DNA from: an uncultured Candidatus Peribacteria bacterium
Lineage (GTDB): Bacteria > Patescibacteriota > Gracilibacteria > Peribacterales > Peribacteraceae
Reading direction: 5' to 3'
NCBI GenBank assembly: GCA_964428205.1
Contig: CAYRXE010000001.1
Coordinates: forward strand, 1 to 51,201
DNA: 51,201 bases
Positions 4,457 to 37,377 of the stretch are shown here, one piece after another. Position numbers and translations under genes: made by a program. Position 1 is the stretch's first letter; every line of letters starts with the position of its first letter. The notes beneath the pieces are model-generated. The model had not been told where the DNA came from. It was given only the letters and a program-made list of their open reading frames with translations, and ran no database searches.

Positions 4457-6097
4457 CTAGCGAGTAACGGGAGCCCAGAGGCTCCATCCGCTGCCACTAC
4501 GCACCCTTTTGAGGTCACGAGTACTTGGCTTCCAATCTGGGCGCGTCTTCTCGTTCCAGAGAACGTAATCGACCTGATATGTATCCAATGCTGTACGGGT
4601 ATCACGGCGGACCTCTGCACAACGGTCTTCGATCTTCTGCACATAGGCTTCGTAGTTCGCTTGGGTCTCCTGACCACGAAGCACACGCAGATGTAATTCG
4701 GTTACGGGAATGAGCGTGGGTACGGGTGCGGGCAATGTGCTGTACATCTCCGAAGTGCAAAAGCGATCTGCATACTCTGCGTCACTGATGAGCAAGTGCC
4801 CGGTGTACTCGGTAAAGATGACGTCATGCTTGGTATGAATGGCGACGTTGTCTGCCGTATAGCGATCGGTGAGGACTGTTCCCACAGGTTCTCTGGAGAG
4901 GTATGTGAATGCACCGGCCACGTGCAAGTAACCAAGCTCTTGAGCACCTGACGGTGCACGTAAGGCGCGAACGCGTCCCCCGCTATCCCACATCGCTGGG
5001 ATGGCAAAGATCAGTGCGGCGATAACGGCGATGCTTCCTGCGATGGTCTTCCATTCTCCTTTAAGGATCACGCGTGCACAGAGCAGAGCTGCGGTGAGCA
5101 GGAAGTACGTGACGTAGTGCGACGAGAACGACATCACCTTCCCATGCACAATGGACTGCGAATACACGACGGCACTGGCGATACACAGGCACACGAGCGG
5201 GATCACTTCTTTACGCTCCCCTTTCTTCGTCCAGAGGATCACCGCAGCGACAGCGACGATGGCCGTGATGATGCTGCGAGGAATGGACTCGGGCCAATGT
5301 GTGTAGGCAAGACCTGCACGTGCGGAGGCTTCGGCGAAGAGCGGATTGACCGAGTGACCGAGCATCGTCGAGATGAAGGGCCACGCTGCAATGAGTACGG
5401 CAATCCAGAGCACAATCATGCTCTTGAGTCCCATGCGAGGAGACGCCTTGTAACCAAGGAGTCCTGCAAGACACAGGAGACCGGCAAATGCCCAAGCAAA
5501 TGTCCAACTCCACAGATACACGTACGTCAGGAGACCAAGAGAGATGCCGGCGAGAATTGCCTTGGGATACCTCGCGTCTTCGTACCAGCGCCAGAGGAGC
5601 AGTAAGGCAGTGAGAGTCGCCGGCAAACTCCATGCAGGGTGTGGGTACCGACGTGCGTACCCAATCGCAATGAAGAAGATCACGCTCGCAATACATGCCC
5701 ACCCAAACGGCACCCCCGCTCTACGAAAGAGCTGAGTGGAGAGTACGAGGACGAGTGGCGTGATGAAGAGCGTGACGAGAAGAGCTAGCCACGATGCATT
5801 GATGCCACTCCACGAAAACGCAACGCCGAGGATCCTCTCCATCCCCGCCTGCTGCAGACCGGGAGGTGGATTCCCCTGTGACCAAATGCCGTTACTTACT
5901 TGTCCCAGAGGATTCGTGAGACCTTCTTGTAAACGCACGAGATACATCGACTCATCTTCTCCTTTGTATGGGAGGAGTCCGTTGTACTTGTCGCTCAGCA
6001 AAAACTGAGCAGGCTGCAATGCCAGGATGATGAATCCAAAGGCATACAATGCGGTGAGGACGCCAATACGCGCTCGCTTCGTCATACCAGGCATCAT
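4457..6097 (-). CDS. polytopic membrane protein with C-terminal soluble domain, GT-C-like putative glycosyltransferase, 546 aa
   Basis: ORF 4457..6361 trimmed to ATG 6097, which forms an ATGA overlap with the upstream stop. About 10 or more hydrophobic helices. Loop-1 motif EDESMYLVRLQE resembles the ArnT/PMT DExxY motif. C-terminal region of about 170 aa is hydrophilic. Confidence 0.55.
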   Translation of the reverse strand: MMPGMTKRARIGVLTALYAFGFIILALQPAQFLLSDKYNGLLPYKGEDESMYLVRLQEGLTNPLGQVSNGIWSQGNPPPGLQQAGMERILGVAFSWSGINASWLALLVTLFITPLVLVLSTQLFRRAGVPFGWACIASVIFFIAIGYARRYPHPAWSLPATLTALLLLWRWYEDARYPKAILAGISLGLLTYVYLWSWTFAWAFAGLLCLAGLLGYKASPRMGLKSMIVLWIAVLIAAWPFISTMLGHSVNPLFAEASARAGLAYTHWPESIPRSIITAIVAVAAVILWTKKGERKEVIPLVCLCIASAVVYSQSIVHGKVMSFSSHYVTYFLLTAALLCARVILKGEWKTIAGSIAVIAALIFAIPAMWDSGGRVRALRAPSGAQELGYLHVAGAFTYLSREPVGTVLTDRYTADNVAIHTKHDVIFTEYTGHLLISDAEYADRFCTSEMYSTLPAPVPTLIPVTELHLRVLRGQETQANYEAYVQKIEDRCAEVRRDTRTALDTYQVDYVLWNEKTRPDWKPSTRDLKRVRSGSGWSLWAPVTR

Positions 6098-7503
6098 ATC
6101 CACTTCACTCGCTTGGCTCCACGCAAAAGGAGTTTGCCGAGCAATAAGCCGTGGCGGAACCTGCGGATCTTGGTGACTCCGTAGGTGCGCGGAAGATAAT
6201 GCACAGGGACTTCGCGCATCTTGAGCTGCTGCAGTGAACCTCCTAAGAAGAAGTCGAAGTCGCCAAAAGGATCGAGCCTGGAATCCATGCGATCGTAGTG
6301 CGCGCGGAAGAACATTTTGACCGGCGACAGTGTGTCGACAAGCTTCTGACGGAAGAGCCACGAGAAGAGCACGCTGAAAGTTTTATTACCAAGTAAGTTG
6401 AGGATGCGCATAGCACCTTCGTCCATCGGATAGACTAAGCGTGATGCATTCACGAACTCTGCTTTGCCACTCGCGAGGAGATCGTAGAGGCGTGGGAGTT
6501 CAGAGGGATGCACCGTGAAGTCACCGTCGTACACAAGGATGATGTCGCCTGTGGACGCTGCAGCTCCTGTGTGGAGGGCGTTCGCTTTGCCCGTGGCCGT
6601 CTGCTTGATGCCGCGGACTTTGACTGGGCCCGTGTGCTCGCGCGAGATGCGTTCGATTTCTTCCCACGTGCCGTCGTTGGAATGCCCTTCGGCGAAAATG
6701 ATCTCGGTGCTGGTTCCCATGACCGGCATGCTGTTGACGATCTGGGAGATGTTTCCTTTCTCGTTACGCACAGCGGAGAGCACGGTGACGGAATACTCCT
6801 GACGCGGAATCGTCATAGGACGGGCCACCATGTATTTCACGACGCAGAGCCTGCGTAAGAGTGGAAACGTCGCGAGGTATTTGTTGCAGAAGCGTGCGAT
6901 GAGAGGGATGGCAACGGGGAAGAGCATGCGCTCCCCTTCTTCGACGACTTCGAAGTCCGTGAGTGTGAGGAGGTTTCGAATGTCGTTACGTGAGAGCCAG
7001 TTCTGTTCTGGAAAGTGCGTCTTGATGCCGATCCACTCTGCAACGAGGAAGAGCGGAGCCCACAAGAAGTTCCAGTGCGTGATGATCACACGCGTGCGGT
7101 TGTGACACAGATGATCGCGGATGTTCTGGAGTGCGCCTTGTACGTCACGCAGGTAGTTGATGGTGTCGAGGAGCAGCACCACATCGTAGTGCTGGTGATG
7201 CGTGAGCTTGGTCACATCGTCTTGGATGTACTCGCCCTTGGGATCAGCTTCTTTGGCGAACTTGAGCATCTCGGACGAGAAATCGATACCTACCTTCTTT
7301 TCTTGAGAGAGATGACGAAGAACAGGAGCGATACCGCAGCCAAGTTCGACGATGGATGCGTCCTTTTGCAGAAAGACATTTAACCAGCGGAGCCTGTCTT
7401 GGTAATAGACGCGGTGTCTGCGAAGGTCCTTCGCGCGGTACGGAGCGAGTGCATCAAAAAATGCACGTGAGGATTCGCCGGGTACAGATGCTTGCGTGGT
7501 CAT
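6094..7503 (-). CDS. bifunctional class I SAM-methyltransferase / GT2 glycosyltransferase fusion, 469 aa
   Basis: N-terminal half has the SAM motif IVELGCGIAPVL...DVVLLLDTINYL. C-terminal half has VTVLSAVRNE..., GKANAL and a YDGDF DxD-type motif (Dpm1/GtrB-like GT2). ATGA overlaps at both ends. Confidence 0.85.
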   Translation of the reverse strand: MTTQASVPGESSRAFFDALAPYRAKDLRRHRVYYQDRLRWLNVFLQKDASIVELGCGIAPVLRHLSQEKKVGIDFSSEMLKFAKEADPKGEYIQDDVTKLTHHQHYDVVLLLDTINYLRDVQGALQNIRDHLCHNRTRVIITHWNFLWAPLFLVAEWIGIKTHFPEQNWLSRNDIRNLLTLTDFEVVEEGERMLFPVAIPLIARFCNKYLATFPLLRRLCVVKYMVARPMTIPRQEYSVTVLSAVRNEKGNISQIVNSMPVMGTSTEIIFAEGHSNDGTWEEIERISREHTGPVKVRGIKQTATGKANALHTGAAASTGDIILVYDGDFTVHPSELPRLYDLLASGKAEFVNASRLVYPMDEGAMRILNLLGNKTFSVLFSWLFRQKLVDTLSPVKMFFRAHYDRMDSRLDPFGDFDFFLGGSLQQLKMREVPVHYLPRTYGVTKIRRFRHGLLLGKLLLRGAKRVKWI

Positions 7504-8681
7504 GCGTCAGACTCTGTGATGGAACACAGGAGATCCACTTCTTCCTCCGTGAGATCAGGGTTATTCGGGAAGTAGAGACCTTGATGATGCACAATGCGCG
7601 ACTGCGGACAGTCTCCCACCGGGTAATGCTTCGTCCAAAACGGATGCGTGGTGATGTCGCCGGCAATCACTGGGCGTACTTCCACTCCTGCAGCCTCAAA
7701 ACGGGCGACACACTTGGCGAGTGCTTCGGGCGACACGGTAATGAGCGGCATGGCGAAGTTCGAGAGACGCTCAATGTGATCCACTTCGAGAGGAAGATAG
7801 AGATCTGGGCGCTTACGTTGTGAAGCATGGAAGCGCTCGAAGTTCTTTTGGCGTGTCACGATGGTAGCTTCGAGCAGCGGCATCTGGAGCGTGCCCAGGA
7901 ATCCCCCAATCTCGGTATTACGAGTATTGAACGCCTGTTCGTAAAAGGTGTAGCGCGCATGGAAGTCGCTCAAATGGTGCTGCGTACGCAGTTCCCGCTG
8001 ACGCTCCGGTGAGAGGTTTCTATCCCAACCGTGTGCTCTCACCATCACGAGCATCTCGTGGAGCTCGGAGTCATCGGTGCAGATCATGCCGCCTTCAATG
8101 GTGGAAAGGTGATGACCGACGAAGAAGGAGAACGTGGAAGCAAGTCCGAAGTTACCAAGCAATGTCCCCTTGTAGATCGTACCCAGAGATTCGCAGTTAT
8201 CCTCCAAGAGGAGGACGTTGTGCTTATCGCAGAGGGCGCGAATCGCATCAATATCTCCGCAGAATCCAAGCGCATTGGTAATGAAGAACGCCTTCATGCC
8301 TTTAATGTGCTTCTCCAGTTCCACTGCCGTCACGTTGAGGTGCCTGGTATCGCAATCGACAGGAACAGGCACGAGACCCAGCTGCATGAGCGGCATCACG
8401 TTCGTCGCCCAGGTGAGTACCGAGAAGCCCACCTTATCTCCTGGTTCTAGGTGCCCAAGGTTGAGGAGAGCTTGAATGAGCACGAGATTCGCGAGACTGC
8501 CGTTACCCACATACACCGCGTGTTTCCTCTTTTGGTATGTCGCAAACGCAGTTTCAAACGCTGCGCATTTTTCTCCCATGCTCAGGCGCGGTGCCGTGCG
8601 GATGAATTCTGCGAGTTGCTCGCGCGTACGCTCTTCGTCGAAGAACGTAGATCGCATGAGTGGAATGCGGGGCGATTTCAT
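7500..8681 (-). CDS. colD: PLP/PMP-dependent sugar 3-dehydratase of ColD/RfbH type (DegT fold with His replacing the Schiff-base Lys), 393 aa
   Basis: FSFFVGHHLSTIEGGMICTDDSELHEMLVMVRAHGWDRNL closely parallels the ColD block FSSFYSHHIATMEGGCIVTDD...IRAHGWTRNL as I recall it. The length is ColD-like and no C-terminal Fe-S Cys cluster was seen. Start moved to ATG 8681, which is preceded by TATACA plus 8 nt. Confidence 0.75.
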   Translation of the reverse strand: MKSPRIPLMRSTFFDEERTREQLAEFIRTAPRLSMGEKCAAFETAFATYQKRKHAVYVGNGSLANLVLIQALLNLGHLEPGDKVGFSVLTWATNVMPLMQLGLVPVPVDCDTRHLNVTAVELEKHIKGMKAFFITNALGFCGDIDAIRALCDKHNVLLLEDNCESLGTIYKGTLLGNFGLASTFSFFVGHHLSTIEGGMICTDDSELHEMLVMVRAHGWDRNLSPERQRELRTQHHLSDFHARYTFYEQAFNTRNTEIGGFLGTLQMPLLEATIVTRQKNFERFHASQRKRPDLYLPLEVDHIERLSNFAMPLITVSPEALAKCVARFEAAGVEVRPVIAGDITTHPFWTKHYPVGDCPQSRIVHHQGLYFPNNPDLTEEEVDLLCSITESDA

Positions 8682-8689
8682 GCAGGAAG

Positions 8690-8695
8690 TGTATA
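8690..8695 (-). promoter_or_regulatory. -10-like box TATACA, 8 nt upstream of the colD-like ATG 8681
   Basis: Minus strand reads TATACA cttcctgc ATG, in the 74-nt divergent intergenic region. Confidence 0.45.
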
Positions 8696-8743
8696 CGAAA
8701 AAACCCTGCACGCCCGCCTTTTGGCACAGTCAGCATTCTCGGG

Positions 8744-8755: not shown

Positions 8756-9538
8756 ATGGCACGACCTTCGTCGCTCTCCCTTCTCTGGCGCCTCCTCACA
8801 ACGGTGAGGAACCCTTGGACCTACGTGTGGAATCGTCTTGGCCTCATTCCACATCCCTTTAGTTACAAACTGTGGGATGGCACGAAGGTGATGAGCAGGC
8901 CTTTTGCGATCGATCGTATGTCCATTAACGACGTGTGGCTTGAACAGAGTTACGAGCCCAATCACTACGGCATTCCTTTTGATTGGAAGTCTGTGAAAAA
9001 TGTTATCGACATTGGTGCGAACACTGGAACCTTCACGCTCTTTGCGGCATGGCGCGCACGCAATGCACAGATTCATTCTGTAGAACCTGAACCAGGCAAC
9101 TTGAAGATCCTTGAAGCAAACGTGAATCAAAATAATTTGCAGAATCGTGTGCACATCCATCCTGTAGCTATGGGGGCAAAAGAAGAGACTCTCACGCTGC
9201 ATATCAATCACCAGAGCAGTGGCGGCCACTCCCTCCATAAGTACACCGACGACAGCCACGGCATTGCCGTTCCGGTAAAACCACTGATGACGATTCTGGA
9301 TCAGCTCAACGGAGCAACGTGTGATTTTTTGAAGATGGACTGCGAGGGTGCCGAGTACGACATTTTGTATACCCTCCCCGAGGAGACCTTCGCCCGACTC
9401 CCCTTCATGGCCGTGGAATTCCATCATTTTTCGGATGATCCCACCCACCGCCCGGGTCCTCTTAAAGAGTTCTTAACAAAGAAAGGCTATAACCTGTTAG
9501 AGCACAAGAAATCGCTCTGCTTTGCCTATAAGAAATAA
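8756..9538 (+). CDS. FkbM-family SAM-dependent methyltransferase, 260 aa
   Basis: VIDIGANTGTFTLF, EPEPGN and FLKMDCEGAEYDIL are typical FkbM blocks. Confidence 0.85.
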   Translation: MARPSSLSLLWRLLTTVRNPWTYVWNRLGLIPHPFSYKLWDGTKVMSRPFAIDRMSINDVWLEQSYEPNHYGIPFDWKSVKNVIDIGANTGTFTLFAAWRARNAQIHSVEPEPGNLKILEANVNQNNLQNRVHIHPVAMGAKEETLTLHINHQSSGGHSLHKYTDDSHGIAVPVKPLMTILDQLNGATCDFLKMDCEGAEYDILYTLPEETFARLPFMAVEFHHFSDDPTHRPGPLKEFLTKKGYNLLEHKKSLCFAYKK

Positions 9539-9540
9539 CG

Positions 9541-9546
9541 TACAAT
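9541..9546 (+). promoter_or_regulatory. -10-like box TACAAT, 8 nt upstream of ATG 9555
   Basis: TACAAT ctctgtac ATG. Confidence 0.45.
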
Positions 9547-9554
9547 CTCTGTAC

Positions 9555-10829
9555 ATGTCTGATCGTCCTGTCCTCTGCGTCGTGGGTCTTGGCTACGTTG
9601 GCCTGCCCCTTGCTCATGCCTTTGCTGCCAAAGGATATGAGGTCCTTGGCTATGACATCAGCGAGAAGCGCATCACGGAGTTGCAACAGCACACAGACAG
9701 CACCCGCGAACTCACAACGGAACAATTACAGGCAGCACCCATCACTTTTAGCAGTGATGCCGAAATCATGCGCAAGGCAGACGTGATTATTCTCGCCATC
9801 CCAACCCCGGTAGATGACGCAAACAAGCCTGACCTCACACTCGTGGAGTTGGCTTCGGAGAATGTGGGTAAGCACATGAAGAAAGGAGCCATCGTCGTGT
9901 ACGAGTCGACGGTGTACCCGGGAGTTACGGAAGATATCTGCGGACCAATTTTGGAGAGGGCCTCAGGTATGAAGTGCGGAGTCGATTTCACTCTTGGGTA
10001 TTCGCCAGAACGCATCAACCCCGGAGACAAAGAGCACACCGTCGATAAGATTATGAAGATCGTCGCAGGTCAGGATGCTGCGACCTTGGAGAAACTCGCA
10101 ACGCTCTACGGATCGATTGTGACTGCAGGCATCCACAAAGCTTCGTCCATCAAGATCGCCGAAATGGCCAAGGCAATTGAGAATGCACAGCGCGATATCA
10201 ACATCTCCTACATCAACGAGATAGCCATCCTCTGCAGCAAGATTGGTATTCCTACAAAAGAGGTTTTGAACGCTGCAGGTACGAAGTGGAACTTCCTCAA
10301 GTTCCAACCGGGACTCGTAGGAGGCCACTGCATTGGCGTGGATCCGTATTACCTCGTCGAGAAAGCAGACATGCTCGGCATGAAAACTCCGCTCATCAGT
10401 GCGAGTCGCGCCATCAACGACAGTATGGGTTGCTTTGTTGCAGAGCAAGTCGTGGGCGCGCTCAAGAGTGATGCCAAACAGGCAAAGGTTCTCGTGATGG
10501 GTGTGACCTTTAAAGAGAACATCCCAGACACTCGCAACAGCAAAGTCGGTGACGTGATCAAGCATCTGCGTGCCGCAGGCTGCACCGTCAAAGTGCATGA
10601 CGCGCAGGTGACTCGCGAAACGTTGGAGAAGATGACCTACGAACCAGGCTCGCTCGAAGATGGTCCGTTCGATGCCGTGCTCTTGCTCGTCCCACACAAG
10701 GAATACCTGGCACTGAGTAGTGAAGAGTTCGCTGCAGCTCTCAAGCCACAGGGCGTGTTCTTTGACCTTAAATCACTCTTAGACCGCAAGGCATTTGAGG
10801 GAGCAGGCCACACATATATCGCCTTGTAA
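9555..10829 (+). CDS. nucleotide-sugar 6-dehydrogenase, TviB/WbpO-like (UDP-HexNAc to UDP-HexNAcA), 424 aa
   Basis: VVGLGYVGLPLAHAFA, GYSPERINPGD and GLVGGHCIGVDPYYL (catalytic Cys). Start moved from 9522 to ATG 9555 to clear the upstream gene. Confidence 0.88.
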   Translation: MSDRPVLCVVGLGYVGLPLAHAFAAKGYEVLGYDISEKRITELQQHTDSTRELTTEQLQAAPITFSSDAEIMRKADVIILAIPTPVDDANKPDLTLVELASENVGKHMKKGAIVVYESTVYPGVTEDICGPILERASGMKCGVDFTLGYSPERINPGDKEHTVDKIMKIVAGQDAATLEKLATLYGSIVTAGIHKASSIKIAEMAKAIENAQRDINISYINEIAILCSKIGIPTKEVLNAAGTKWNFLKFQPGLVGGHCIGVDPYYLVEKADMLGMKTPLISASRAINDSMGCFVAEQVVGALKSDAKQAKVLVMGVTFKENIPDTRNSKVGDVIKHLRAAGCTVKVHDAQVTRETLEKMTYEPGSLEDGPFDAVLLLVPHKEYLALSSEEFAAALKPQGVFFDLKSLLDRKAFEGAGHTYIAL

Positions 10830-12707: not shown

Positions 12708-12730
12708 CGCTCTTACAAGATTGGGCAATA

Positions 12731-12759: not shown

Positions 12760-12765
12760 GAGAGC

Positions 12766-27958: not shown

Positions 27959-27978
27959 CGGTGCAAGCACTATAGCGA

Positions 27979-29016: not shown

Positions 29017-29019
29017 AAA

Positions 29020-29028: not shown

Positions 29029-29045
29029 CACTGTCGTCCATCCGC

Positions 29046-29762: not shown

Positions 29763-29828
29763 CGCTCACCCCGTTTCACTCGAAAATGCAGCCGTGATCC
29801 CCCGGTGGGATTTTTCTTCAAAACCCTC

Positions 29829-31022
29829 ATGTCTTCCCTTACGCCAAAAACAGTAACGATCGTCGGTGGCTGCGGCCACGTCGGCCTGCCCCTTGGTATG
29901 GCCTTCGCACAGAAGGGATACACCGTGTACCTGCTCGACATCAGTGCCGATGCGGTGAAGCGTGTGAACGAAGGAACCATGCCATTCATGGAAGATGATG
30001 CCGATGCCCTGCTCCCCGAGATGATCAAGAGTGGCAAGCTCAAGGCCACGACGGACTCTGCGGTACTCAAGGAGACCGAGAACGTGATTGTGACAATTGG
30101 TACGCCGGTGGATGAGTACTTGGATCCCTCCGTGCGCACGTTCGACCAGGCACTCCACACGATTGTGGAACAGATGGTCTCGGGTCAGCTCTTGGTGCTC
30201 CGCAGTACGGTGTTCCCCGGAGTGACCGAACGCTTGGGTGAACAGATGAAGGCGATGGGTCGCAGCGATATTGATTTGGCTTACTGCCCAGAGCGCATTG
30301 TGCAGGGTAAGTCCTTGCAGGAATTGGCCCAGCTTCCGCAGCTCATTGGTGGATTTACCGAGAGTGGCGCTAAGCGTGCAGCTGCGCTCTTCCAAGCGCT
30401 CGCTCCTATTTCGATCTTCCTTAAGCCCATCGAAGCAGAACTCGCCAAGCTCTACGCCAACGCCTGGCGCTACATCAACTTCGCAATCAGTAACCAATTC
30501 TGGGTCATCGCACAGCAGTTCGGAGCTGATTTCCAAAAGGTCCACAGCGCACTCTTGCAGGATTACCCCCGCATGAAGTCTTTCGCACGCGCAGGCTTTG
30601 CTGCCGGTCCTTGTCTTTTGAAAGACACGATGCAGCTCGGTGCTTTTAACCACGGCTCCTTCGTGCTTGGTCAGGCAGCCATGATGATCAACGAAGGTCT
30701 GCCATACATCTTTGTACAGCAAGTAAAAGAGACGCACGATCTTAAAAAAATGACGGTGGGCTTGCTCGGTATGGCCTTTAAGCCAGAGAGCGATGACATC
30801 CGCAGTTCCCTCTCCTACAAGCTCCAGAAGATCCTCGTACTCGAATCAAAGAAAGTTCTGTGTGCAGATCCCTATGTGAAAGATCCGCAGTTGGTGCCTG
30901 AAGAAGAAGTGCTCGCCAATGCAGACATCATCGTGATTGGCACGCCACACGAGCGCTATAAGACGATGCAGTTTAAGCAGCCTGTCGTGGACATCACCGG
31001 AGTGATTAAGCCCACGAAATAA
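29829..31022 (+). CDS. UDP-glucose/GDP-mannose dehydrogenase-family nucleotide-sugar dehydrogenase, 397 aa
   Basis: VTIVGGCGHVGLPLGMAFA, AYCPERIVQG and GFAAGPCLLKD (catalytic Cys). The start at ATG 29829 is uncertain; the ORF-track GTG 29805 is possible. Confidence 0.82.
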   Translation: MSSLTPKTVTIVGGCGHVGLPLGMAFAQKGYTVYLLDISADAVKRVNEGTMPFMEDDADALLPEMIKSGKLKATTDSAVLKETENVIVTIGTPVDEYLDPSVRTFDQALHTIVEQMVSGQLLVLRSTVFPGVTERLGEQMKAMGRSDIDLAYCPERIVQGKSLQELAQLPQLIGGFTESGAKRAAALFQALAPISIFLKPIEAELAKLYANAWRYINFAISNQFWVIAQQFGADFQKVHSALLQDYPRMKSFARAGFAAGPCLLKDTMQLGAFNHGSFVLGQAAMMINEGLPYIFVQQVKETHDLKKMTVGLLGMAFKPESDDIRSSLSYKLQKILVLESKKVLCADPYVKDPQLVPEEEVLANADIIVIGTPHERYKTMQFKQPVVDITGVIKPTK

Positions 31023-32618
31023 CTACCACACGAGCTTGTAAAGGCGCGTCATCTCCATGTACTTCGAAGCTTCTTTCTGGAGCACCAGGTTCTTCGCCAT
31101 CTTCGTGTAGATGTACTGGTAGAGCTTGTCTGGGCGCTGTTCTATACCGGGGATAAACAGATACTCTACTTTCTTATCCTTCAGGTACTGCGCGAGCGTG
31201 CCGTTATTGAGCGCTTCGTTTGCGAGAGGATCTATGTTGCCCGCAATGTCCTGCAAACGAACATCCGTAAAGAGTGAAATGCGGCCATAGTCTCTTGCGC
31301 CCACAATGGTCCCCGGCGGGAGATTCGTTTTAACCCAGTCGATGGCGTGCCAAAACTTCTCACTCTCCACAGGATCAGGATTACTGAAGAAGCCCATGTA
31401 CCTTGCCCACGGGAAACGCGTGGTCATTTGGTAGTACTTGTATCCCGAAAGCACGATGAGACAAATGGCGAGGAACACCACAGCCGTGCGCTTGAGCTTA
31501 TCGACCGGAATCTGCCACAAGAGATACGCGACGAAGATAAAGAGGATGTGAGTGGCTGGGTTGATATAGCGAAGGCCATGCAGGTTTGCGAAGTACCACT
31601 GGTACCCCACGAGCAGGGCAAAGAACGTACCGAAGTACAGGAAGGAGATGACCCCGAGCGTGCGAAGCTCTTTCTTGAGTGTTCCATACACGAGCGCTGC
31701 GAGCATAAAGAACGAACTTCCTGTCGCGATGGTGAAGAGTTCTTCGAGCTGGAAGACATTCCATCCGGAGATCTTGAGGTAGCGATAGAGATCGAATTGA
31801 GCGAAGTCGAACTGATGCCACGCGAGTGAGAGTTCGCGGCGGCCAACCTGGTTACCCGGGAAGGGTGAACCTGTTTGCACGAGCTGCCACGTCATAAAGG
31901 CTGCGAAGCACACACCCCAGAGGAGCAGCATGCCAAGAAGCAGCTTTCCTTGTTCTTTACGCTCCGTGCCCTGTGCCTTCCACCAACTGTAGGCCTGCAC
32001 ACAGAAGAGTGCGAAGAGCACAAAGATTCCATCGCCACGTGTGAGACACGTCAGGCCAAGCATCAATCCAATCACGGTTCCCCACGCAAAGTTTGACCAG
32101 TTCGCAGGACGACCAACGCCAAGGTAGGTGCCAATACTCAGCAACACAAAGAGTGTGAAGAGCACCGTATCCATACCGTTCATGCCGTTGAGGAAGGCAT
32201 TCCCCGTAAAGGTAGCGAGGATGAACGCCGTCCATGCCACGCGCTTATCTTGTGTGAGCTTTTGTGCGATGTAGAAGACGGCCACTGCACACAATGCGCC
32301 AATGACAGACGTCATGATCAACGTGGCACGAATAGCCATGTCGGCTCCAAAGAGCATGTGATTGAGCGAGCTTAGGTAGATCCACAAAAACGGCGCACCG
32401 GTCGTGGAGTGCACACCATCGAGCGTAAAGCCGAGTCCCATCGCAATGTTCTTTGCGACGCGCATTTCGATGAAGCTGTCATCAATCAACCAACTCGTGC
32501 TCGCAAGTCCGCGCATAGGGACGAGCAAGACGTAGCAGGCTTTTAAGAAGACGACTGTCGCCGAGGTAAACCAGACATACCACAAAGACAGAGAGGGCTT
32601 AGATTCAAGAGTAGGCAT
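31023..32618 (-). CDS. GT-C glycosyltransferase, ArnT/PMT_2-like polytopic membrane protein, 531 aa
   Basis: Loop-1 LIDDSFIEMRVAKNIAMGLGF. About 12 hydrophobic helices plus a C-terminal soluble domain. ATG 32618 is preferred because TATACT lies 6 nt upstream. Confidence 0.62.
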   Translation of the reverse strand: MPTLESKPSLSLWYVWFTSATVVFLKACYVLLVPMRGLASTSWLIDDSFIEMRVAKNIAMGLGFTLDGVHSTTGAPFLWIYLSSLNHMLFGADMAIRATLIMTSVIGALCAVAVFYIAQKLTQDKRVAWTAFILATFTGNAFLNGMNGMDTVLFTLFVLLSIGTYLGVGRPANWSNFAWGTVIGLMLGLTCLTRGDGIFVLFALFCVQAYSWWKAQGTERKEQGKLLLGMLLLWGVCFAAFMTWQLVQTGSPFPGNQVGRRELSLAWHQFDFAQFDLYRYLKISGWNVFQLEELFTIATGSSFFMLAALVYGTLKKELRTLGVISFLYFGTFFALLVGYQWYFANLHGLRYINPATHILFIFVAYLLWQIPVDKLKRTAVVFLAICLIVLSGYKYYQMTTRFPWARYMGFFSNPDPVESEKFWHAIDWVKTNLPPGTIVGARDYGRISLFTDVRLQDIAGNIDPLANEALNNGTLAQYLKDKKVEYLFIPGIEQRPDKLYQYIYTKMAKNLVLQKEASKYMEMTRLYKLVW

Positions 32619-32657: not shown

Positions 32658-33893
32658 TTACTTTTGCTGTTCGTAGTACCGAATGTAGGCCTCTGCCTGA
32701 TGTGCGACCAAGAACGCATCCATCGCGCGTGCATGTCCTGCGTCTCCCATGCGTGTGCGCAGATCCCCTTCTCTCAGGAGTCTGGCGAGGTACTGCGGAT
32801 ACTCAAGGCTACGTGGATCGCACACAAATCCTGTGACCTCGTGCTGCACAGCCTCTGGTGTGCCACCAAAAATTGTTCCAACGACCGGCTTACGGCACAC
32901 CATGGCCTCAAGGTTGGTTGATGGGAAGCAATCCAAACATACCGACGGTGTCGTGACGATCTCGGATGCATAGTACGCAAGACGCATGTCGTCCGGACCC
33001 AACCACCCTGCTGCTCTGCAGAACGTATCGAGTTCGGAATCGGCAATGCCTGCGAACGTCTGTATCACCGACCACATCGTTTTTTCTCCAGCGACGAGTA
33101 GGAGTGCATCGGGGAATTCCTGATGCAGAGACTTCATGGCCTGCAGCACTTGTGTGGATCCTTTGTCGACACTCAGGCGTCCGCCAAAGAGGATCACACG
33201 GCGACCTTCGAGGTTGTGCTTTTTCTTAAATGCTTCGAGTGCTGAGGCTTCGGGTTTCTGCCATTGAGCGAGATCCACACCGTTATGCACAACAAAGACG
33301 TTGGGGATGCCGTTTTGTGCGAGCGCCGTCTGGAGCGCTTTGCTTACCGCAAACACCTGATCGACGTAGGTTTGGAAGATATGGTGGATCCACCAGTTTC
33401 GTACCGGGTTGTATTGGAGCTTCGCTGCCCTCCAGTGTTCGCTCAGAGTCATGCGTGCATCGCGCTTTGGTCCTAGGTATGCAGCGGATACGACGCGCTT
33501 GTACGAGAAGCTTAAGACATCGTGCAACGTGATGAAGACTTTCGCTCCGAGTTTCTTACCAATGCGCAGTACGTCGTAGGTGAGGTACGCATGAATGTTG
33601 TGCGCATGCACAATGTCGGGTGCGAGCGCACGAAGTTCCTGTGTGAGCATCCACGAGACACTCGGTGAATACAGACAGTGATAGTGACGCAGTGATATGC
33701 GATACGACACCGGCAGGCTGATGACTCCCGGTAAGCGAATGATCTCTGGGGAACTCTCTCGGCGATGAGACGTGATGACCGTCACGCTGTGGCCCATGGC
33801 CGTGTATTGGCGCGCCAAATTCTCCACAATAGCAGCAACGCTATTGGTACCTCCGGTTGCCACGTAATCATCATTAACCAGAACGATCTTCAT
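32658..33893 (-). CDS. GT4 (GT-B) glycosyltransferase, 411 aa
   Basis: Trimmed to MKIVLVNDD. Motifs FGGRLSVDKG and NLEAMVCRKPVVGTIFGGTPEAVQHEVTGF. Confidence 0.85.
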   Translation of the reverse strand: MKIVLVNDDYVATGGTNSVAAIVENLARQYTAMGHSVTVITSHRRESSPEIIRLPGVISLPVSYRISLRHYHCLYSPSVSWMLTQELRALAPDIVHAHNIHAYLTYDVLRIGKKLGAKVFITLHDVLSFSYKRVVSAAYLGPKRDARMTLSEHWRAAKLQYNPVRNWWIHHIFQTYVDQVFAVSKALQTALAQNGIPNVFVVHNGVDLAQWQKPEASALEAFKKKHNLEGRRVILFGGRLSVDKGSTQVLQAMKSLHQEFPDALLLVAGEKTMWSVIQTFAGIADSELDTFCRAAGWLGPDDMRLAYYASEIVTTPSVCLDCFPSTNLEAMVCRKPVVGTIFGGTPEAVQHEVTGFVCDPRSLEYPQYLARLLREGDLRTRMGDAGHARAMDAFLVAHQAEAYIRYYEQQK

Positions 33894-33899
33894 AACCCC

Positions 33900-33905
33900 A
33901 TTGTA
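33900..33905 (-). promoter_or_regulatory. -10-like box TACAAT, 6 nt upstream of ATG 33893
   Basis: Minus strand reads TACAAT ggggtt ATG, inside the 17-nt gap after the upstream stop. Confidence 0.45.
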
Positions 33906-33910
33906 GCGGG

Positions 33911-35641
33911 TTATGGGTCCATTCGTACGATGCTCCAACGGTCATCGGACCAGACGGTCGTACCCTGTCCCCGTACGGAGCGCAGCTCAGGAGTAAGGTC
34001 TTGCTGAGCGTCAACTACCAAGTACGTGAGAGGATACAGATGAATTTTTTCGGTCAGACTTTTACGAACATACGCTCGGTATTCGGCGAGGTGTTTGGCA
34101 ACGACGTTATCGGGGATTGCTGTGTAATCACCCAAGTACTCGCGGTAGTAAATAGCGTAGATGCGACTACTCAATTCTTTACGGCGTGTCGTCGAAAAAT
34201 CTTTCGCAGCTTGTTGAGGGGTCACGCCCTTGAGCCAAAGCTCGAAGAAGTACGCATCGCGAGCCTGGGCATCGGAGACCAAATAGTTATTGGCGTTTGT
34301 GGATGTATAGACATCGACACTTGTGTAGATAGGAAGGAGATCGAGGAGATCCCACTGCGGTGAATACACCACTTCTCCTGCTTTGCCCTGTTCACGGAAG
34401 TAATCGACGACTGGCTCGTAACGCTGGAAGCTTGCCCAGAGTGGTGCCATTTCTCGATAGCGCCCTGTCTGCTGCCAAAAGCCCCAAGCAATACACAACA
34501 CGGCAATGATCCAGAACGATGATTTTAAGTTTTTTTGCAGCGAAGGCAGACCAGCGAGGAGCAGGAAGACTACGAGCACCGTAAAGGCACTCGCAAGTGG
34601 CTGAATGAAGTACCAGTGATAGTGATGCGGAACAATGAACTTACCTGTGATCACATGTTGATTGAGTGCGATGATGCCTGCGAGTCCGCAACCAAGAACT
34701 ACCGGCCAGTTCTTACCCCACAGAGGGCGATACACGAGCGCGATGATGGGGAAGAAGATTGCCCAAGCACCCATGATGGGCATGTGCGAAGCAATCATGC
34801 CAATCCGGCGCGAGCTATCGACGAAGAGTGGATGATGCGACACGTCGTACATGTGCATCAAATATGGAAGTACCAAGATGGCAAAGACTCCCAAGAGACC
34901 TGCAGCACGCTTGAGGCGTAGTTGGTCTTTGGAAAGGAAGTAGAGTGGTACGAGAAGACCGAGTACCACGACGGCAAACGTCCACGCGTACACATACGAC
35001 CACACGAGCACGAGCAGGGTCGCCATCGCTGCTGCTCCACGCGCATATCCTCCGCGCTGGATGTACAGAGAAAGTAGCCACAGGAAGCCAAAAAACCATG
35101 GTCCGGTCCAAAGCGGATTTACGGGCCTGGAGAAGCGAAGGTAATCAAACACAGGGGCGTCTGGATTGGGCACGCGGAAGACTGAGAGGATCTCCCACGG
35201 TGAGCCGAGGAACTTTCCTGCAAAGAGCAGGACGATGACTGCGAGAAGCGCTGCCCACTTATTGCTGGTGACGGACGAAAAGAATCCGACCATTGTGAAT
35301 ACGAGCGCAATAGCACCAAGAACACTAAAGAGCATGAACGCGTAGACAGGATCAATGTGCAGTAACCACGCAGTGCCCGCGATCGCCATCTCGGGAGTAG
35401 GAGGCTGCAAGAATGGCTGATCTTTTGGTGAGCTGTAGAAGGTGTTTCCGGTTTCCCAGAAGCCATCGGCAATCTCGCGCACACGAGCGGCGTAGTGAAT
35501 CTCCGCATCGGTCGGCATTATCACAATGCCTGCAAAGTTCGAGCTGGGATCAATGCGCTGCGCTACGTACGGCAACACGGCCGCAGCTGCGAAGAGCAAA
35601 GCCACGAGACCAGTACTAAGGAGAAAGCGAGTATCACGCAT
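33911..35641 (-). CDS. polytopic membrane protein with C-terminal soluble domain, GT-C-like (paralog of 4457..6097), 576 aa
   Basis: Trimmed to MRDTRFLL (8-nt ATGCGTGA overlap with the upstream stop). Loop-1 TDAEIHYAARVREIADG parallels EDESMYLVRLQE of 4457..6097. About 12 or more hydrophobic helices. Confidence 0.55.
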   Translation of the reverse strand: MRDTRFLLSTGLVALLFAAAAVLPYVAQRIDPSSNFAGIVIMPTDAEIHYAARVREIADGFWETGNTFYSSPKDQPFLQPPTPEMAIAGTAWLLHIDPVYAFMLFSVLGAIALVFTMVGFFSSVTSNKWAALLAVIVLLFAGKFLGSPWEILSVFRVPNPDAPVFDYLRFSRPVNPLWTGPWFFGFLWLLSLYIQRGGYARGAAAMATLLVLVWSYVYAWTFAVVVLGLLVPLYFLSKDQLRLKRAAGLLGVFAILVLPYLMHMYDVSHHPLFVDSSRRIGMIASHMPIMGAWAIFFPIIALVYRPLWGKNWPVVLGCGLAGIIALNQHVITGKFIVPHHYHWYFIQPLASAFTVLVVFLLLAGLPSLQKNLKSSFWIIAVLCIAWGFWQQTGRYREMAPLWASFQRYEPVVDYFREQGKAGEVVYSPQWDLLDLLPIYTSVDVYTSTNANNYLVSDAQARDAYFFELWLKGVTPQQAAKDFSTTRRKELSSRIYAIYYREYLGDYTAIPDNVVAKHLAEYRAYVRKSLTEKIHLYPLTYLVVDAQQDLTPELRSVRGQGTTVWSDDRWSIVRMDP

Positions 35642-36455
35642 GTTTGCGTAGAACAACGTACACGTTAGCGGCGCAGAGTTCTGCACCTGGAATACGCGCA
35701 AAGAGGATATCGAAGAACTTGAGCCAGAAGAATGCAATGAGGATCATATATTGGATGATCGTCTGGAGCTTACGAGAGCCAAAACACAGAATGGTCGCAA
35801 TGAACGCACTCTTGAATGCAAGGAGCGCCGAGAACGGCCCTGCGGTAATCCCCTTCTCTACGATGGTGGTGTTAGGCGCGAGTGACGCGAGACCCTCCCA
35901 CGTCCAACGTGAGAAGTCGGATGGCGATGGATGCCATGGGAACACAAATGGAGTCGCAATGTGCAACTGACCACCGGGTTTGAGGATCCTCAAAAATTCC
36001 TGCACAGCTTTGCGTGGGTCATGCACATGCTCGAGCACTTGATCGGTTGTGACGGCGTCGAACGTGCCATCGGCAAATGGAAGTGCCGTCACGTCTGCGA
36101 GCACGTCGACGGTCGCGAACGGGAAGATGTCGAGATTGATCACGTGCGGAACACGAGGCTCAGCTCCACTCCCTGCATTGAGGACGAGTGATGGGGATGA
36201 GAAACGACGAATAAACCTGCGTGCCGTGACTCCAGTAAAGAATGAAGGACCAATGAGGAAGACAAGGATTTCGTAGAGCTTTGGCCACTTCTTAAAGAGA
36301 TTCTTAATGGCGTTATCCACGTCAGACGCAGCGGCATCGTCGTGCATGGTGGTGGTTTCGTGTGAGCGTGTGTCGAGCACTCCAGATTGCACGCGAGATT
36401 GGAACTCGGGCTTGAGGACAGACTTGAGCCGCTCGACATGTGAGGCATCACCCAT
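35634..36455 (-). CDS. class I SAM-dependent methyltransferase with flanking hydrophobic segments, 273 aa
   Basis: FADGTFDAVTTDQVLEHVHDP and LKPGGQLHIATPF (Methyltransf_11-like). Hydrophobic LYEILVFLIGPSFF near the N-terminus and two C-terminal hydrophobic stretches. Confidence 0.75.
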   Translation of the reverse strand: MGDASHVERLKSVLKPEFQSRVQSGVLDTRSHETTTMHDDAAASDVDNAIKNLFKKWPKLYEILVFLIGPSFFTGVTARRFIRRFSSPSLVLNAGSGAEPRVPHVINLDIFPFATVDVLADVTALPFADGTFDAVTTDQVLEHVHDPRKAVQEFLRILKPGGQLHIATPFVFPWHPSPSDFSRWTWEGLASLAPNTTIVEKGITAGPFSALLAFKSAFIATILCFGSRKLQTIIQYMILIAFFWLKFFDILFARIPGAELCAANVYVVLRKHA

Positions 36456-37377
36456 GGGAACGCACGCGATAGGGTTTGGTGTCCTGTGACTGGAAGTACG
36501 TACGCATGGTCATTTCGCCAAGAATGCCCATGAGTGCACACTGCACTCCAACAATCACAAACAAAGCTGCGAGAACCGGGAGTGGTGTTTCGATGAGCGT
36601 TGGCCCGCCAACTTCGCGCACGACAATCGCGGCAATGAGCGTGAGGAAGCCGAGAAGGATGGAGAGCAAACCAATACCACCGAAGAACTGCATGGGGCGT
36701 GTGAACGACTTAAGGGTGAATGCGAGCATGAACATGTCGAGGAATACTCTCCAAATACGACCAAAGCCGTACTTCGATTTGCCGCGCATACGTGGACGGT
36801 GCGTGACGGGAATCTCACAGACACGAGCTCCATATTGAGCGGCATACGCAGGCAGGAACCTGTGCATATCTCCATAGAGATGCAGGTGCTCCACAGCAGA
36901 GCGCCTGTAGGCCTTGAGTGTGCAGCCGTAGTCGTGAATGTCCTGACCGGAGACACGACGGAGCATCCCGTTTGCGAACTTGGAAAAGAATGAACGTACA
37001 AAAGGATCTTTGCGCTGCTTCCTCCACCCCGAGACGATGTCGTAACCCTCGTCGAGTTTGGTAAGAAGTTTGGGAATGTCATGGGGATCGTTCTGGCCAT
37101 CGGCATCCATCGGGATGATCACGTCACCGGTGGCATGATCCATGCCTGCAGCAATCGCTGCGGTCTGACCAAAGTTACGAGCAAGGACCACCACCTTAAG
37201 GAAGGAGTACTTGGAAGCGAGTGACTGGAGTTCCTGCGTGGTGCCATCGGTACTGCCATCATCCACAGCAATCACCTCGGCTCCACTGAATTGCGTGAGT
37301 ACTTCTGCGAGCTCAGCCAAAAGCGGCGCAATGTTCTCGCGCTCGTCTTTCACCGGCAAAATAACCGAAAGCTTCAT
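36448..37377 (-). CDS. GT2 polyprenyl-phosphate sugar synthase, GtrB/ArnC-like with 2 C-terminal TM helices, 309 aa
   Basis: LSVILPVKDE, VIAVDDGSTDGT, ARNFGQTAAIAAG, PMDADGQNDP, SGWRKQRKD. Confidence 0.9.
   Translation of the reverse strand: MKLSVILPVKDERENIAPLLAELAEVLTQFSGAEVIAVDDGSTDGTTQELQSLASKYSFLKVVVLARNFGQTAAIAAGMDHATGDVIIPMDADGQNDPHDIPKLLTKLDEGYDIVSGWRKQRKDPFVRSFFSKFANGMLRRVSGQDIHDYGCTLKAYRRSAVEHLHLYGDMHRFLPAYAAQYGARVCEIPVTHRPRMRGKSKYGFGRIWRVFLDMFMLAFTLKSFTRPMQFFGGIGLLSILLGFLTLIAAIVVREVGGPTLIETPLPVLAALFVIVGVQCALMGILGEMTMRTYFQSQDTKPYRVRSHG

Follow-up and report, generated by a model that had tools for sequence, protein, structure and literature searches.

A Candidatus Peribacteria surface-glycan locus carrying several predicted glycosyltransferase modules for sugar transfer outside the membrane

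Gene content and physical coupling of the locus

The present analysis concerns a stretch of 51,201 nucleotides from an uncultured Candidatus Peribacteria bacterium (GenBank assembly GCA_964428205.1, contig CAYRXE010000001.1, positions 1 to 51,201, forward strand), hereafter called the window, which covers 51 kb out of the 82.7-kb contig. Using six-frame open reading frames (ORFs) and Pfam scans, essentially the whole window was found to be one surface-glycan locus of approximately 45 candidate genes, with an even GC content of 0.51-0.56. Five genes encoding family 2 glycosyltransferases (GT2s), labelled G1-G5, and five genes encoding polytopic membrane proteins resembling GT-C glycosyltransferases, labelled M1-M5, were observed, forming the pairs G1/M1, G2/M2, G3/M3 and G5/M5 and the loose association G4/M4. 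Herein, we propose, with a probability of roughly 0.7, that this cell-surface glycan locus, which exceeds 50 kb, contains four coupled modules and one uncoupled module of the multi-component transmembrane glycosylation type. In total, the window encodes eight GT4 glycosyltransferases and six GT2 genes; a GDP-mannose 4,6-dehydratase, several short-chain dehydrogenase/reductase (SDR) epimerases/reductases and two nucleotide-sugar 6-dehydrogenases; two DegT-family enzymes, two GFO/IDH/MocA oxidoreductases and one UDP-GlcNAc 2-epimerase; GNAT and FemAB-like acyltransferases and two AsnB amidotransferases; one sugar C-methyltransferase, five other stand-alone methyltransferase genes and one methyltransferase domain fused to a GT2; and one Wzx, one GtrA and the five polytopic membrane proteins. 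The genes of the proposed modules and those directly associated with them are as follows.

1988-2431, minus strand: GtrA-family small membrane protein, candidate flippase and sole GtrA of the window (Pfam GtrA_DPMS_TM, 84 bits)
4457-6097, minus strand: M1, polytopic protein with a C-terminal soluble domain, M1/M5 GT-C-like family (related to M5 and, by hhalign, to the M3 family)
6094-7503, minus strand: G1, class I S-adenosylmethionine (SAM) methyltransferase (approximately residues 40-190) fused to a GT2 (approximately residues 235-446) resembling dolichyl-phosphate mannose synthase (DPMS), by Pfam and NCBIfam (AglJ, 8e-27)
8756-9538, plus strand: FkbM_a, methyltransferase, first gene of the module 2 operon (Pfam Methyltransf_21, 76 bits)
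10845-11984, plus strand: M2, protein with 11 transmembrane (TM) helices and a predicted GT-C fold (AlphaFold model and Foldseek)
11984-12664, plus strand: G2, soluble DPMS-like GT2 (NCBIfam AglJ, dolichyl-phosphate hexose transferase, ArnC and PpgS)
14639-15973, plus strand: Wzx-type flippase with 11 hydrophobic segments (Pfam Polysacc_synt, 54 bits)
15970-16737, minus strand: FkbM_b, methyltransferase, downstream of G3 (Pfam Methyltransf_21, 57 bits; 35% identity to FkbM_a)
16780-17607, minus strand: G3, DPMS/ArnC-like GT2 with C-terminal hydrophobic helices (NCBIfam dolichyl-phosphate hexose transferase and PpgS)
17570-18847, minus strand: M3, predicted PMT_2-type GT-C protein (Pfam PMT_2)
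29046-29762, plus strand: G4, soluble DPMS-like GT2, uncoupled
29805-31022, plus strand: UGDH_b, nucleotide-sugar dehydrogenase resembling UDP-ManNAc dehydrogenase, downstream of G4 (NCBIfam)
31023-32618, minus strand: M4, predicted PMT-type GT-C protein, final gene of the G5 operon (Pfam PMT; NCBIfam LA_3751/3752 family, 6e-8)
32658-33938, minus strand: GT4 glycosyltransferase between M5 and M4 (Pfam)
33911-35641, minus strand: M5, M1/M5 GT-C-like family (homology to M1 and the M3 family)
35634-36455, minus strand: MT11_c, SAM methyltransferase with two predicted C-terminal TM helices, between G5 and M5 (Pfam Methyltransf_11, 55 bits)
36448-37377, minus strand: G5, ArnC/GtrB-type GT2 with two C-terminal TM helices
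42550-43431: sixth GT2, of another type (Pfam Glyco_tranf_2_4)

The five Dpm1/GtrB/ArnC-like GT2s and the five polytopic proteins had been named in a preliminary description of this DNA, and both sets were recovered in the present study by Pfam, PDB matches and TM prediction. The omission of the sixth GT2 from that set was correct, since it is of the Glyco_tranf_2_4 type, and the single GtrA, the single Wzx and the four methyltransferase positions (FkbM at 8756-9538 and 15970-16737, Methyltransf_11 at 35634-36455 and the fusion in G1) were likewise detected by Pfam. Four of the pairs are physically coupled, as had been claimed, either through overlapping start and stop codons or, in the case of G5/M5, with one gene in between. 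G1/M1 overlap by 4 bp, M2/G2 by 1 bp and M3/G3 by 38 bp, and overlaps of 8 bp each are observed for G5/MT11_c and MT11_c/M5. G4 and UGDH_b on the plus strand converge on M4, the last gene of the G5 operon, leaving G4/M4 uncoupled. Upon random permutation of the 45 genes, at least three directly adjacent GT2/membrane pairs arose in approximately 8% of gene orders (p ~0.08), and at least four pairs within two genes in approximately 2% (p ~0.02). In a locus as densely packed as this one, adjacency alone is thus only slightly out of the ordinary, and therefore the pairing rests on translational coupling, on conservation in other genomes and on gene fusions.

Family assignments of the paired proteins

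Pfam Glycos_transf_2 was detected in all five GT2 genes, and DPMS (5mlz), ArnC or GtrB (sll0501) were among the top solved-structure matches of each in a PDB sequence search, spanning most of the catalytic domain. G5 aligned with ArnC from end to end, including the two C-terminal TM helices (residues 2-298, E 2.6e-54), and with the GtrB homologue sll0501 (E 3e-36). G4 matched Pyrococcus DPMS (residues 4-225, E 6e-21), G3 matched ArnC (residues 3-241, E 8e-17), and G2 matched DPMS (residues 1-197, E 4e-13) and ArnC (E 2e-12), with a shorter N-terminal match to chondroitin synthase ranking slightly above DPMS; the match of the GT2 domain of G1 to DPMS was the weakest of the five (E 5e-9). The top NCBIfam models for G1-G5 were AglJ, dolichyl-phosphate hexose transferase, ArnC, PpgS and PgfS, with AglJ the best model for G1-G3. 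All of these scores are far under the equivalog cut-offs, including those of G5 against ArnC (197 bits, cut-off 529) and PgfS (143 bits), and therefore none of the five enzymes is considered orthologous to a named enzyme. Pairwise identity among G1-G5 is 22-33%, and the genes are thus old paralogues rather than recent duplicates. Judged from these comparisons, the five GT2s are probably of the polyprenyl-phosphate glycosyltransferase type, with strong support for G5, moderate support for G2-G4 and weaker support for G1.

The membrane proteins, each with 8-11 predicted TM segments, share a common layout, in which TM1 is followed by a loop of approximately 70-80 residues, TM2 and then 6-10 further hydrophobic segments. 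The preliminary description had reported an acidic-aromatic motif after TM1 in all five, and the motifs DESMY, DGMQYY, DGAVY, DDSFIE and DAEIHY were indeed all found, 10-25 residues past TM1 of M1-M5. These motifs are conserved in the respective families: E49 and Y52 are kept in at least 90% of 50 diverse relatives of M1/M5, Y58-D59-G60 and Y63, in the first external loop, are invariant in 48 relatives of M2, and D-x-x-x-Y is present in 5/5 relatives of M3. For M4, no relatives were retrieved, and the DD is present in its own sequence. A conserved acidic residue in loop 1, as expected of GT-C enzymes, is thus present in the M1/M5, M2 and M3 families, and M4 has acidic residues at this place in its single sequence.

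The fold assignment was approached differently for each family. Both M3, against Pfam PMT_2 (36.2 bits; cut-off 26.1), and M4, against Pfam PMT (36.2 bits; cut-off 22.7), scored over the threshold, with the match of M4 limited to profile positions 61-233. No MIR domain was found in M4 by Pfam, and its match falls short of a full PMT domain; M4 is regarded as PMT-like and is not filed as a GT39 protein O-mannosyltransferase. M2 had no Pfam match. A word-index search yielded 165 M2 homologues, and the named ones are annotated as 'hypothetical protein' from Peribacteria or Peregrinibacteria. In the curated NCBIfam AZOBR_p60025 family (NF046093), M2 scored 97.5 bits (cut-off 150) over residues 8-230, indicating a relative outside this family. 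The AlphaFold model of M2, based on a 48-sequence alignment, was of high confidence (predicted local distance difference test score, pLDDT, 91.7; predicted TM-score, pTM, 0.92), and 11 of its 12 best Foldseek PDB matches were GT-C enzymes (STT3/OST, PglB, ALG12, ALG3, ALG9 and DPY19; probability 0.87-0.99). PimE (probability 0.57), EmbC, AftA and Pmt4 were observed at lower ranks, transporters were at approximately 0.1, and no ligase was present among the 50 matches listed. The model thereby lends moderate support to a GT-C fold for M2.

M1 and M5 are homologues that share 24% identity over 409 residues (E 8e-13). Word-index searches with M1 and with the M1/M5 profile gave three proteins only; the size of the family was taken from an exhaustive search of cluster representatives, with at least 1198 at E 1e-3 or better and 172 at 1e-30 or better. 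When the M1/M5 profile (50 sequences) was compared with the alignment of M3 relatives (5 sequences), hhalign gave a probability of 94.4% (E 8.8e-8) over 308 columns, beginning at TM1 and with an offset of no more than one residue between the acidic-Tyr motifs, and the controls remained low (reversed sequences, 0.6-1.0%; Wzx, 0.3%). From this homology to the PMT_2-type M3 family, we infer a GT-C fold for M1/M5. Among the single members of the M1/M5 family, weak hints were provided by matches to PMT_2 (2/50; 0.003), to archaeal STT3 (1/50; 5e-5) and, in one case, to the LA_3751/3752 putative glycosyltransferase family. The hhalign probabilities were low for the M1/M5 family against the M2 family (27%) and against M4 alone (9%), and for the M2 family against the M3 family (24%), and therefore M2 and M4 could not be linked by sequence to the other membrane proteins. 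PDB sequence searches with M3, M4 and the M1/M5 and M2 profiles returned nothing meaningful. No Wzy, O-antigen ligase or transporter signal was found in M1-M5 by Pfam and NCBIfam. Thus, the earlier reading of all five proteins as GT-C-like, rather than as Wzy proteins, ligases or transporters, is supported by Pfam for M3 and M4, by Foldseek for M2 and by profile-profile comparison for M1/M5.

Conservation of the modules and the place of the methyltransferases

In a species-representative genome collection, 12/12 loci encoding M1/M5 relatives belong to Candidatus Peribacteria metagenome-assembled genomes (MAGs); a metagenome scan with alignment A1 gave 2 loci only. Together with the named M2 homologues, these loci place the window in a genome of the Candidate Phyla Radiation (Peregrinibacteria/Peribacteria). 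The window proteins were mapped onto the ORFs of related loci (labelled L002 and so on). A methyltransferase-GT2 fusion lies directly before the M1 orthologue in every locus in which this orthologue has 38-41% identity (L002-L012). The most widespread block consists of the dehydrogenase, M2 and G2, with or without FkbM, usually beside a trio formed by the genes at 338-3375 (an FAD-dependent oxidoreductase, GtrA and an Fcl-like reductase). M5-methyltransferase-G5 recurs in L002, L008 and L011, the methyltransferase-M5 pair recurs in L026 and L022 (in the order methyltransferase-M5-GT4 in L026), and G3-M3 recurs in L002, L008, L011 and L018. In L002, L008 and L011, all four modules (G1-M1, FkbM-dehydrogenase-M2-G2, M5-methyltransferase-G5 and G3-M3) stand back to back, spanning approximately 13 kb in L008 and L011. 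Further GT2/GT-C pairs are observed in L007, L010, L012, L015, L016, L018-L021, L026 and L027; in L015, L016 and L027, a G2-like GT2 is paired with an M1-like GT-C, and therefore the partners have been reshuffled. Two proteins, P0197 and P0227, are true GT2-M5 fusions, and P0193 (L024, 5-3010; 1001 residues) is a tandem fusion of M3-like and M5-like GT-C domains. No clear counterparts of G4 and M4 were found in the loci examined. It follows from this analysis that glycosylation outside the cytoplasm with lipid-linked sugars would be heavily used and modularly reshuffled in Peribacteria.

M3-like and M5-like genes were also seen adjacent but separate in L021 (15964-18996). A further candidate fusion, P0160 (795 residues; L028, 3285-5678), was rejected because its own strand encodes no GT2 domain; a GT2-like ORF runs in the opposite direction beneath the N-terminal 260 residues, and the gene call is probably over-extended. 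This case is a caution against counting fusions by length.

Concerning the methyltransferases, the SAM motif is intact in G1 (ELGCG) and in the FkbM proteins (DIGAN/DVGAH), and is plausible in MT11_c (NAGSG). MT11_c is kept with M5 in at least five loci (L002, L008, L011, L022 and L026), and FkbM_a lies upstream of the dehydrogenase, M2 and G2 in several loci. Seven methyltransferase genes or domains are present among the 45 genes, and therefore loose proximity of a methyltransferase to a module carries no weight. The preliminary description had given every coupled pair its own methyltransferase and had expected the methyltransferase-GT2-GT-C adjacency to be kept in related genomes. Of these expectations, the GT2/GT-C pairs themselves, the G1 fusion and the G5-MT11_c-M5 arrangement have been upheld; FkbM_a has proved replaceable or absent, and FkbM_b is not kept near its pair in the loci examined. 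In other words, tight and conserved methyltransferase links appear to be confined to the G1 fusion and the G5-MT11_c-M5 arrangement, and the original claim is only partly supported.

Several observations weigh against the proposed reading of the locus. First, no priming phosphoglycosyltransferase, Wzy or ligase was found in the window by Pfam scans. Second, no TM helix is predicted in G1, G2 and G4, and the DPMS-like GT2s include enzymes with other acceptors, e.g. GpgS, which is among the matches of G2 and G3. Third, the structural matches of M2 are modest (E-values of 0.03-0.1, TM-scores of 0.38-0.46), M1/M5 show no Pfam, NCBIfam or PDB sequence match to a solved GT-C or a curated family, and the AlphaFold model of M1, obtained from only 4 sequences, had a pLDDT of 44 and gave Foldseek matches that amounted to noise and were disregarded. 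Fourth, L020 carries a Methyltransf_23/11 gene at the place of FkbM_a, L019 and L021 have no FkbM_a at all, FkbM_b is not beside G3/M3 in L002, L008, L011 and L018, and a stand-alone methyltransferase lies within three genes of a given GT2 in approximately 57% of the random gene orders.

Some of these points would be expected if the GT2s were cytoplasmic Leloir enzymes extending an oligosaccharide linked to undecaprenyl pyrophosphate, if the membrane proteins were Wzy proteins, ligases or transporters, and if the pairing were a by-product of the dense locus. G1, G2 and G4 without TM helices, three adjacent pairs in approximately 8% of random orders and M1, M2 and M5 without a Pfam match are all consistent with this alternative. 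However, M1-M5 have no Wzy_C or transporter match, M2 has a predicted fold like that of GT-C enzymes and not like that of the major facilitator superfamily, M1/M5 are homologous to the PMT_2-type M3, and the pairs are kept across at least 10 independent MAG loci, also as GT2-GT-C fusions. The alternative is therefore disfavoured, and we regard it as very improbable.

A more serious competitor, to which we assign somewhat less than even odds, holds that the methyltransferases are unrelated to the modules, acting on nucleotide sugars or on a cytoplasmic main-chain repeat unit and lying nearby by coincidence. The abundance of methyltransferases in the locus, the 57% chance proximity to a GT2, the separation of FkbM_b from G3/M3 and the absence of FkbM_a in two loci are in its favour. 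Set against it are the methyltransferase-GT2 fusion in every G1-M1 pair seen, and MT11_c, which is predicted to be membrane-anchored, overlaps both neighbours and is kept with M5 in the five loci named above. The other methyltransferase type at the FkbM_a position in L020 also speaks against coincidence and, as a suggestive point, may indicate a functional need for methylation at that position.

Proposed glycosylation route and comparison with known systems

The donor sugars of the modules may be considered from the following neighbouring genes.

338-1987, minus strand: FAD/NAD-binding oxidoreductase of the PRK07208 family, adjoining GtrA (NCBIfam, 769 bits; curated merely as 'hypothetical protein')
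2464-3375, minus strand: Fcl/ColC-like NAD-dependent epimerase/reductase (Pfam Epimerase; partial match to NCBIfam GDP-L-fucose synthase)
3378-4415, minus strand: GDP-mannose 4,6-dehydratase, Gmd (Pfam GDP_Man_Dehyd, 467 bits)
7500-8711, minus strand: DegT1, DegT-family enzyme of the ColD/RfbH sugar 3-dehydratase type, first gene of the module 1 operon (Pfam DegT, 200 bits; best NCBIfam model RfbH)
9522-10829, plus strand: TviB-like nucleotide-sugar 6-dehydrogenase of the UDP-GlcNAc or UDP-ManNAc type (NCBIfam TviB, 387 bits; NDP-sugar dehydrogenase, 396 bits)
12721-14592, plus strand: AsnB-type amidotransferase, candidate for uronic acid amidation (Pfam Asn_synthase, 246 bits)
18844-20733, minus strand: second AsnB-type amidotransferase, first gene of the M3-G3-FkbM_b operon (Pfam Asn_synthase, 320 bits)
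20876-21679, plus strand: methyltransferase, first gene of an operon extending to 25690
21711-23003, plus strand: SDR with a C-terminal TM helix, same operon
22993-24555, plus strand: GMC-type FAD oxidoreductase, same operon
24566-25690, plus strand: GT4 glycosyltransferase, same operon

In DegT1, 'VGHHLS' aligns with 'PGKNLG' of the second DegT enzyme, so that His replaces the Lys binding pyridoxal phosphate (PLP). A His in place of the PLP lysine, as in ColD and E1, is the mark of sugar 3-dehydratases, and a perosamine-type aminotransferase was ruled out for DegT1 on this ground. DegT1, Gmd and the Fcl/ColC-like reductase look like a pathway for a GDP-3,6-dideoxyhexose of the colitose type rather than for perosamine, the synthesis of which has been reported for Peribacteria (PMC4736985). 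The trio of PRK07208-family oxidoreductase, GtrA and Fcl-like SDR (338-3375, minus strand) recurs in most of the Peribacteria loci examined (L002-L012, L019, L020 and L028). The two AsnB-type amidotransferases flank modules 2 and 3, and an AsnB gene also follows M2 in L021 and L024; this arrangement suggests that amidation of uronic acids is tied to these two modules. In L018, the SDR/GMC pair recurs with G3 on one side and M5 on the other; in L013 and L014, M1-like genes are preceded by an SDR of this kind. By analogy with DprE1/DprE2, this oxidase/reductase pair may epimerise a membrane-bound sugar.

In the route that we propose, a DPMS/ArnC-like GT2, either cytoplasmic or membrane-attached, would take one sugar from its nucleotide-linked donor and attach it to polyprenyl phosphate. 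The lipid-linked sugar would then be flipped, most likely by the single GtrA and possibly also by Wzx, as modelled on CflA of Lactococcus lactis, and a dedicated GT-C would pass it to an acceptor outside the membrane through the conserved acidic residue of loop 1. Each module probably delivers a different sugar, since each GT-C has its own diverged GT2 and its own sugar-modifying neighbours. For module 1 (ColD-like dehydratase, methyltransferase-GT2 fusion, M1, Gmd and Fcl-like reductase), the donor might be a GDP-derived 6-deoxy- or 3,6-dideoxyhexose similar to colitose, and such a GDP-sugar fits the affinity of G1 to DPMS, an enzyme using a GDP-sugar. For module 2 (FkbM, TviB-like dehydrogenase, M2, G2 and AsnB), it might be an N-acetylhexosaminuronic acid, possibly amidated. 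Any methyltransferase acting on the sugar of a module must work before flipping, because SAM is cytoplasmic and transfer by the GT-C is external; the methyltransferase of G1 and MT11_c could act either on the nucleotide sugar or on the sugar linked to polyprenyl phosphate, and we speculate that the membrane anchoring of MT11_c and the G1 fusion favour the lipid-linked stage. As acceptor, surface proteins or a wall polymer may be considered, as may a polysaccharide repeat unit produced through the GT4 genes and Wzx.

A bolder extension, which we consider rather unlikely, is that Peribacteria edit sugars on polyprenyl phosphate: the G1 methyltransferase and MT11_c would methylate them on the cytoplasmic face, the GMC flavoenzyme and the membrane-anchored SDR might epimerise them, and dedicated GT-Cs of two unrecognised families would install them outside. 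If true, such lipid-linked editing would be a modular route to methylated or rare surface sugars that bypasses any cytoplasmic glycosyltransferase.

The nature of the acceptor raises a further alternative, in which the sugars of the modules are placed on proteins of the S-layer or pili or on large extracellular proteins, and not on a polysaccharide, in the manner of actinobacterial Ppm1/Pmt or streptococcal PgfS/PgfM1 O-glycosylation. The matches of M4 to Pfam PMT, of M3 to PMT_2 and of G5 to NCBIfam PgfS would agree with it, as would the S-layer proteins, sortase and very large extracellular proteins encoded by Peribacteria (PMC4736985). However, Wzx, eight GT4 genes and numerous nucleotide-sugar genes surround the modules, a setting characteristic of polysaccharide loci, M4 has no Pfam MIR domain, and PMT or PMT_2 matches are generic for ArnT-like GT-Cs; this alternative is considered unlikely. 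It appears quite unlikely, to a further degree, that the GT-Cs jointly build a polymer backbone outside the membrane from lipid-linked monosaccharides, similar to the assembly of mycobacterial arabinan and mannan by Emb, Aft, Mpt and PimE. Backbone building would account for five GT-Cs of three to four families in one locus without a Wzy found in the window, and would suit the tandem M3-M5 fusion of P0193 and the presence of PimE, EmbC and AftA among the structural matches of M2. Nevertheless, each GT-C has its own GT2 here, whereas mycobacteria supply many GT-Cs from one or two donors, and the eight GT4 genes and Wzx indicate a conventional cytoplasmic repeat unit, for which a Wzy may lie in the part of the 82.7-kb contig beyond the window.

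The proposed reading as multi-component transmembrane glycosylation can be compared with several known systems. The gene set that characterises such systems, namely a GT2, an adjoining GT-C and a GtrA or Wzx flippase, is predicted in this locus, and the modules would work like the GtrABC, ArnC/ArnT, CsbB/GtcA/YfhO, GacI/GacL and PgfS/PgfM1 systems without being orthologues of any named member. First, O-antigen glucosylation by GtrA-GtrB-GtrC of Shigella and Salmonella is a single phage-borne module with no methyltransferase and a serotype-specific GtrC. It shares with the present locus a GT2 synthesising an undecaprenyl-phosphate sugar and having two C-terminal TM helices, as in G5, a GtrA flippase and a polytopic transferase, but GtrC proteins are unrelated in sequence to M1-M5. 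Second, ArnB-ArnC-ArnA-ArnD-ArnT-ArnE/F form the aminoarabinose pathway of lipid A. Module 1 resembles this pathway in that a DegT enzyme and a tailoring step (formyl in Arn, methyl here) are wired to a lipid-loading GT2, followed by a flippase and a GT-C; it differs in that DegT1 has no catalytic lysine and in that a GDP-sugar pathway through Gmd takes the place of UDP-4-amino-4-deoxyarabinose (UDP-Ara4N). With G5 below the ArnC cut-off and no ArnT, ArnA or ArnD model matched, the locus does not qualify as an ArnC/ArnT system, and bacteria of the Candidate Phyla Radiation (CPR) are not known to make lipid A.

Third, the Agl pathway of Haloferax volcanii comprises AglJ and AglD (dolichyl-phosphate GT2s), AglM (UDP-glucose dehydrogenase), AglR (Wzx-like), AglS (a transferase dependent on dolichyl-phosphate mannose) and AglP, a SAM methyltransferase that acts on the dolichol-phosphate-bound glycan and is a precedent for methylation before export. 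AglJ-like GT2s, a nucleotide-sugar dehydrogenase and a Wzx-like flippase are common to both, with only the NCBIfam models AglJ and AglM matched here. In contrast to this locus, Agl is an archaeal system for S-layer N-glycosylation without iterated GT2/GT-C pairs; no AglB/STT3 oligosaccharyltransferase is present in the window, and the matches are far under the equivalog cut-offs. Fourth, mycobacteria employ many GT-Cs (Emb, Aft, PimE and Mpt) that use polyprenyl-phosphate sugars outside the membrane. In pentofuranose three-component systems, the donor is edited at the lipid-linked stage through epimerisation by DprE1/DprE2 or ORF13 (PMC11127046). One donor derived from phosphoribosyl pyrophosphate serves several GT-Cs in the mycobacterial Ppm1/decaprenylphosphoryl arabinose and pentofuranose systems, whereas one GT2 per GT-C, probably with nucleotide-sugar donors, is found here.

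Two further comparisons bear on novelty. The gsf cluster of Actinoplanes missouriensis, annotated in 2026 and studied by in silico annotation and whole-cluster deletion, contains GtrA, a GT2 with two TM helices, an 11-TM protein without a recognised domain, a UDP-ManNAc/GlcNAc dehydrogenase and a SAM methyltransferase with two TM helices (PMC13390465). Compared by description only, these parts closely match modules 2 and 5; unlike the present locus, gsf is a single module, and its 11-TM protein was not assigned as a GT-C by its authors (PMC13390465). In Lactococcus lactis, the adjacent gene pairs CsdAB, CsdCD and CsdEF each place a different sugar decoration on a different acceptor with one GtrA-type flippase, CflA, and Bacillus subtilis has the three GT-A/GT-C pairs CsbB/YfhO, YkcBC and YkoST (PMC8035078). 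The preliminary description knew of no iterated system of this kind, and in view of these examples that position is only partly tenable. Several adjacent GT2/GT-C pairs are thus common to all three organisms, with a single GtrA shared in L. lactis and one GtrA here. Differences are that four to five pairs lie in one locus here, with those of L. lactis and B. subtilis not described as a single locus in PMC8035078, that Pfam offers no model for the M1/M5 or the M2 family, that two modules have a dedicated methyltransferase and that the host is a reduced-genome CPR bacterium.

Literature on GT-C systems of Peribacteria or CPR bacteria and on AZOBR_p60025 yielded nothing specific. Firmicutes, enterobacteria and mycobacteria are already known to use the general mechanism, and the conceptual advance is therefore moderate; new features would be that a CPR bacterium with a reduced genome stacks four to five modules in a single locus, two GT-C-like families without a curated model, and a conserved methyltransferase-GT2 fusion together with the GT2-methyltransferase-GT-C triad. 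CPR bacteria, uncultured and with genomes of approximately 1 Mb, are believed to live in attachment to other cells. The chemistry of their surface, scarcely characterised so far, is therefore of central importance to them, and more than 50 kb devoted to one locus would take up a considerable share of a genome of this size. The M1/M5 family, with its at least 1198 cluster representatives and neither a Pfam nor an NCBIfam model, and the M2 family would gain a functional assignment, and the methyltransferase-GT2 fusion and the triad are concrete candidates for the methylation of lipid-linked sugar donors.

The rest of the window contains genes that may contribute other sugars. A 228-codon ORF at the window edge (50477-51163, minus strand) has no family match and an odd composition, and may be the shadow of an opposite-strand gene leaving the window. 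The minus-strand genes at 25687-29127 encode the sugar C-methyltransferase (Methyltransf_14, preceded by a zinc-binding N-domain) together with an SDR and an oxidoreductase of the GFO family, similar to a C-methyltransferase block in L019, and suggest a branched-chain (C-methyl) sugar in the glycan of the locus. At 37393-46066, WecB, a GFO/IDH/MocA enzyme resembling UDP-GlcNAc 3-dehydrogenase, a DegT aminotransferase with an N-terminal extension of approximately 170 residues, and the GNAT and FemAB-like acyltransferases are encoded. These genes resemble the WbpA/B/E/D/I-like pathway for a 2,3-diacetamido-2,3-dideoxy-uronic acid, and the set is kept in L020 and L029.

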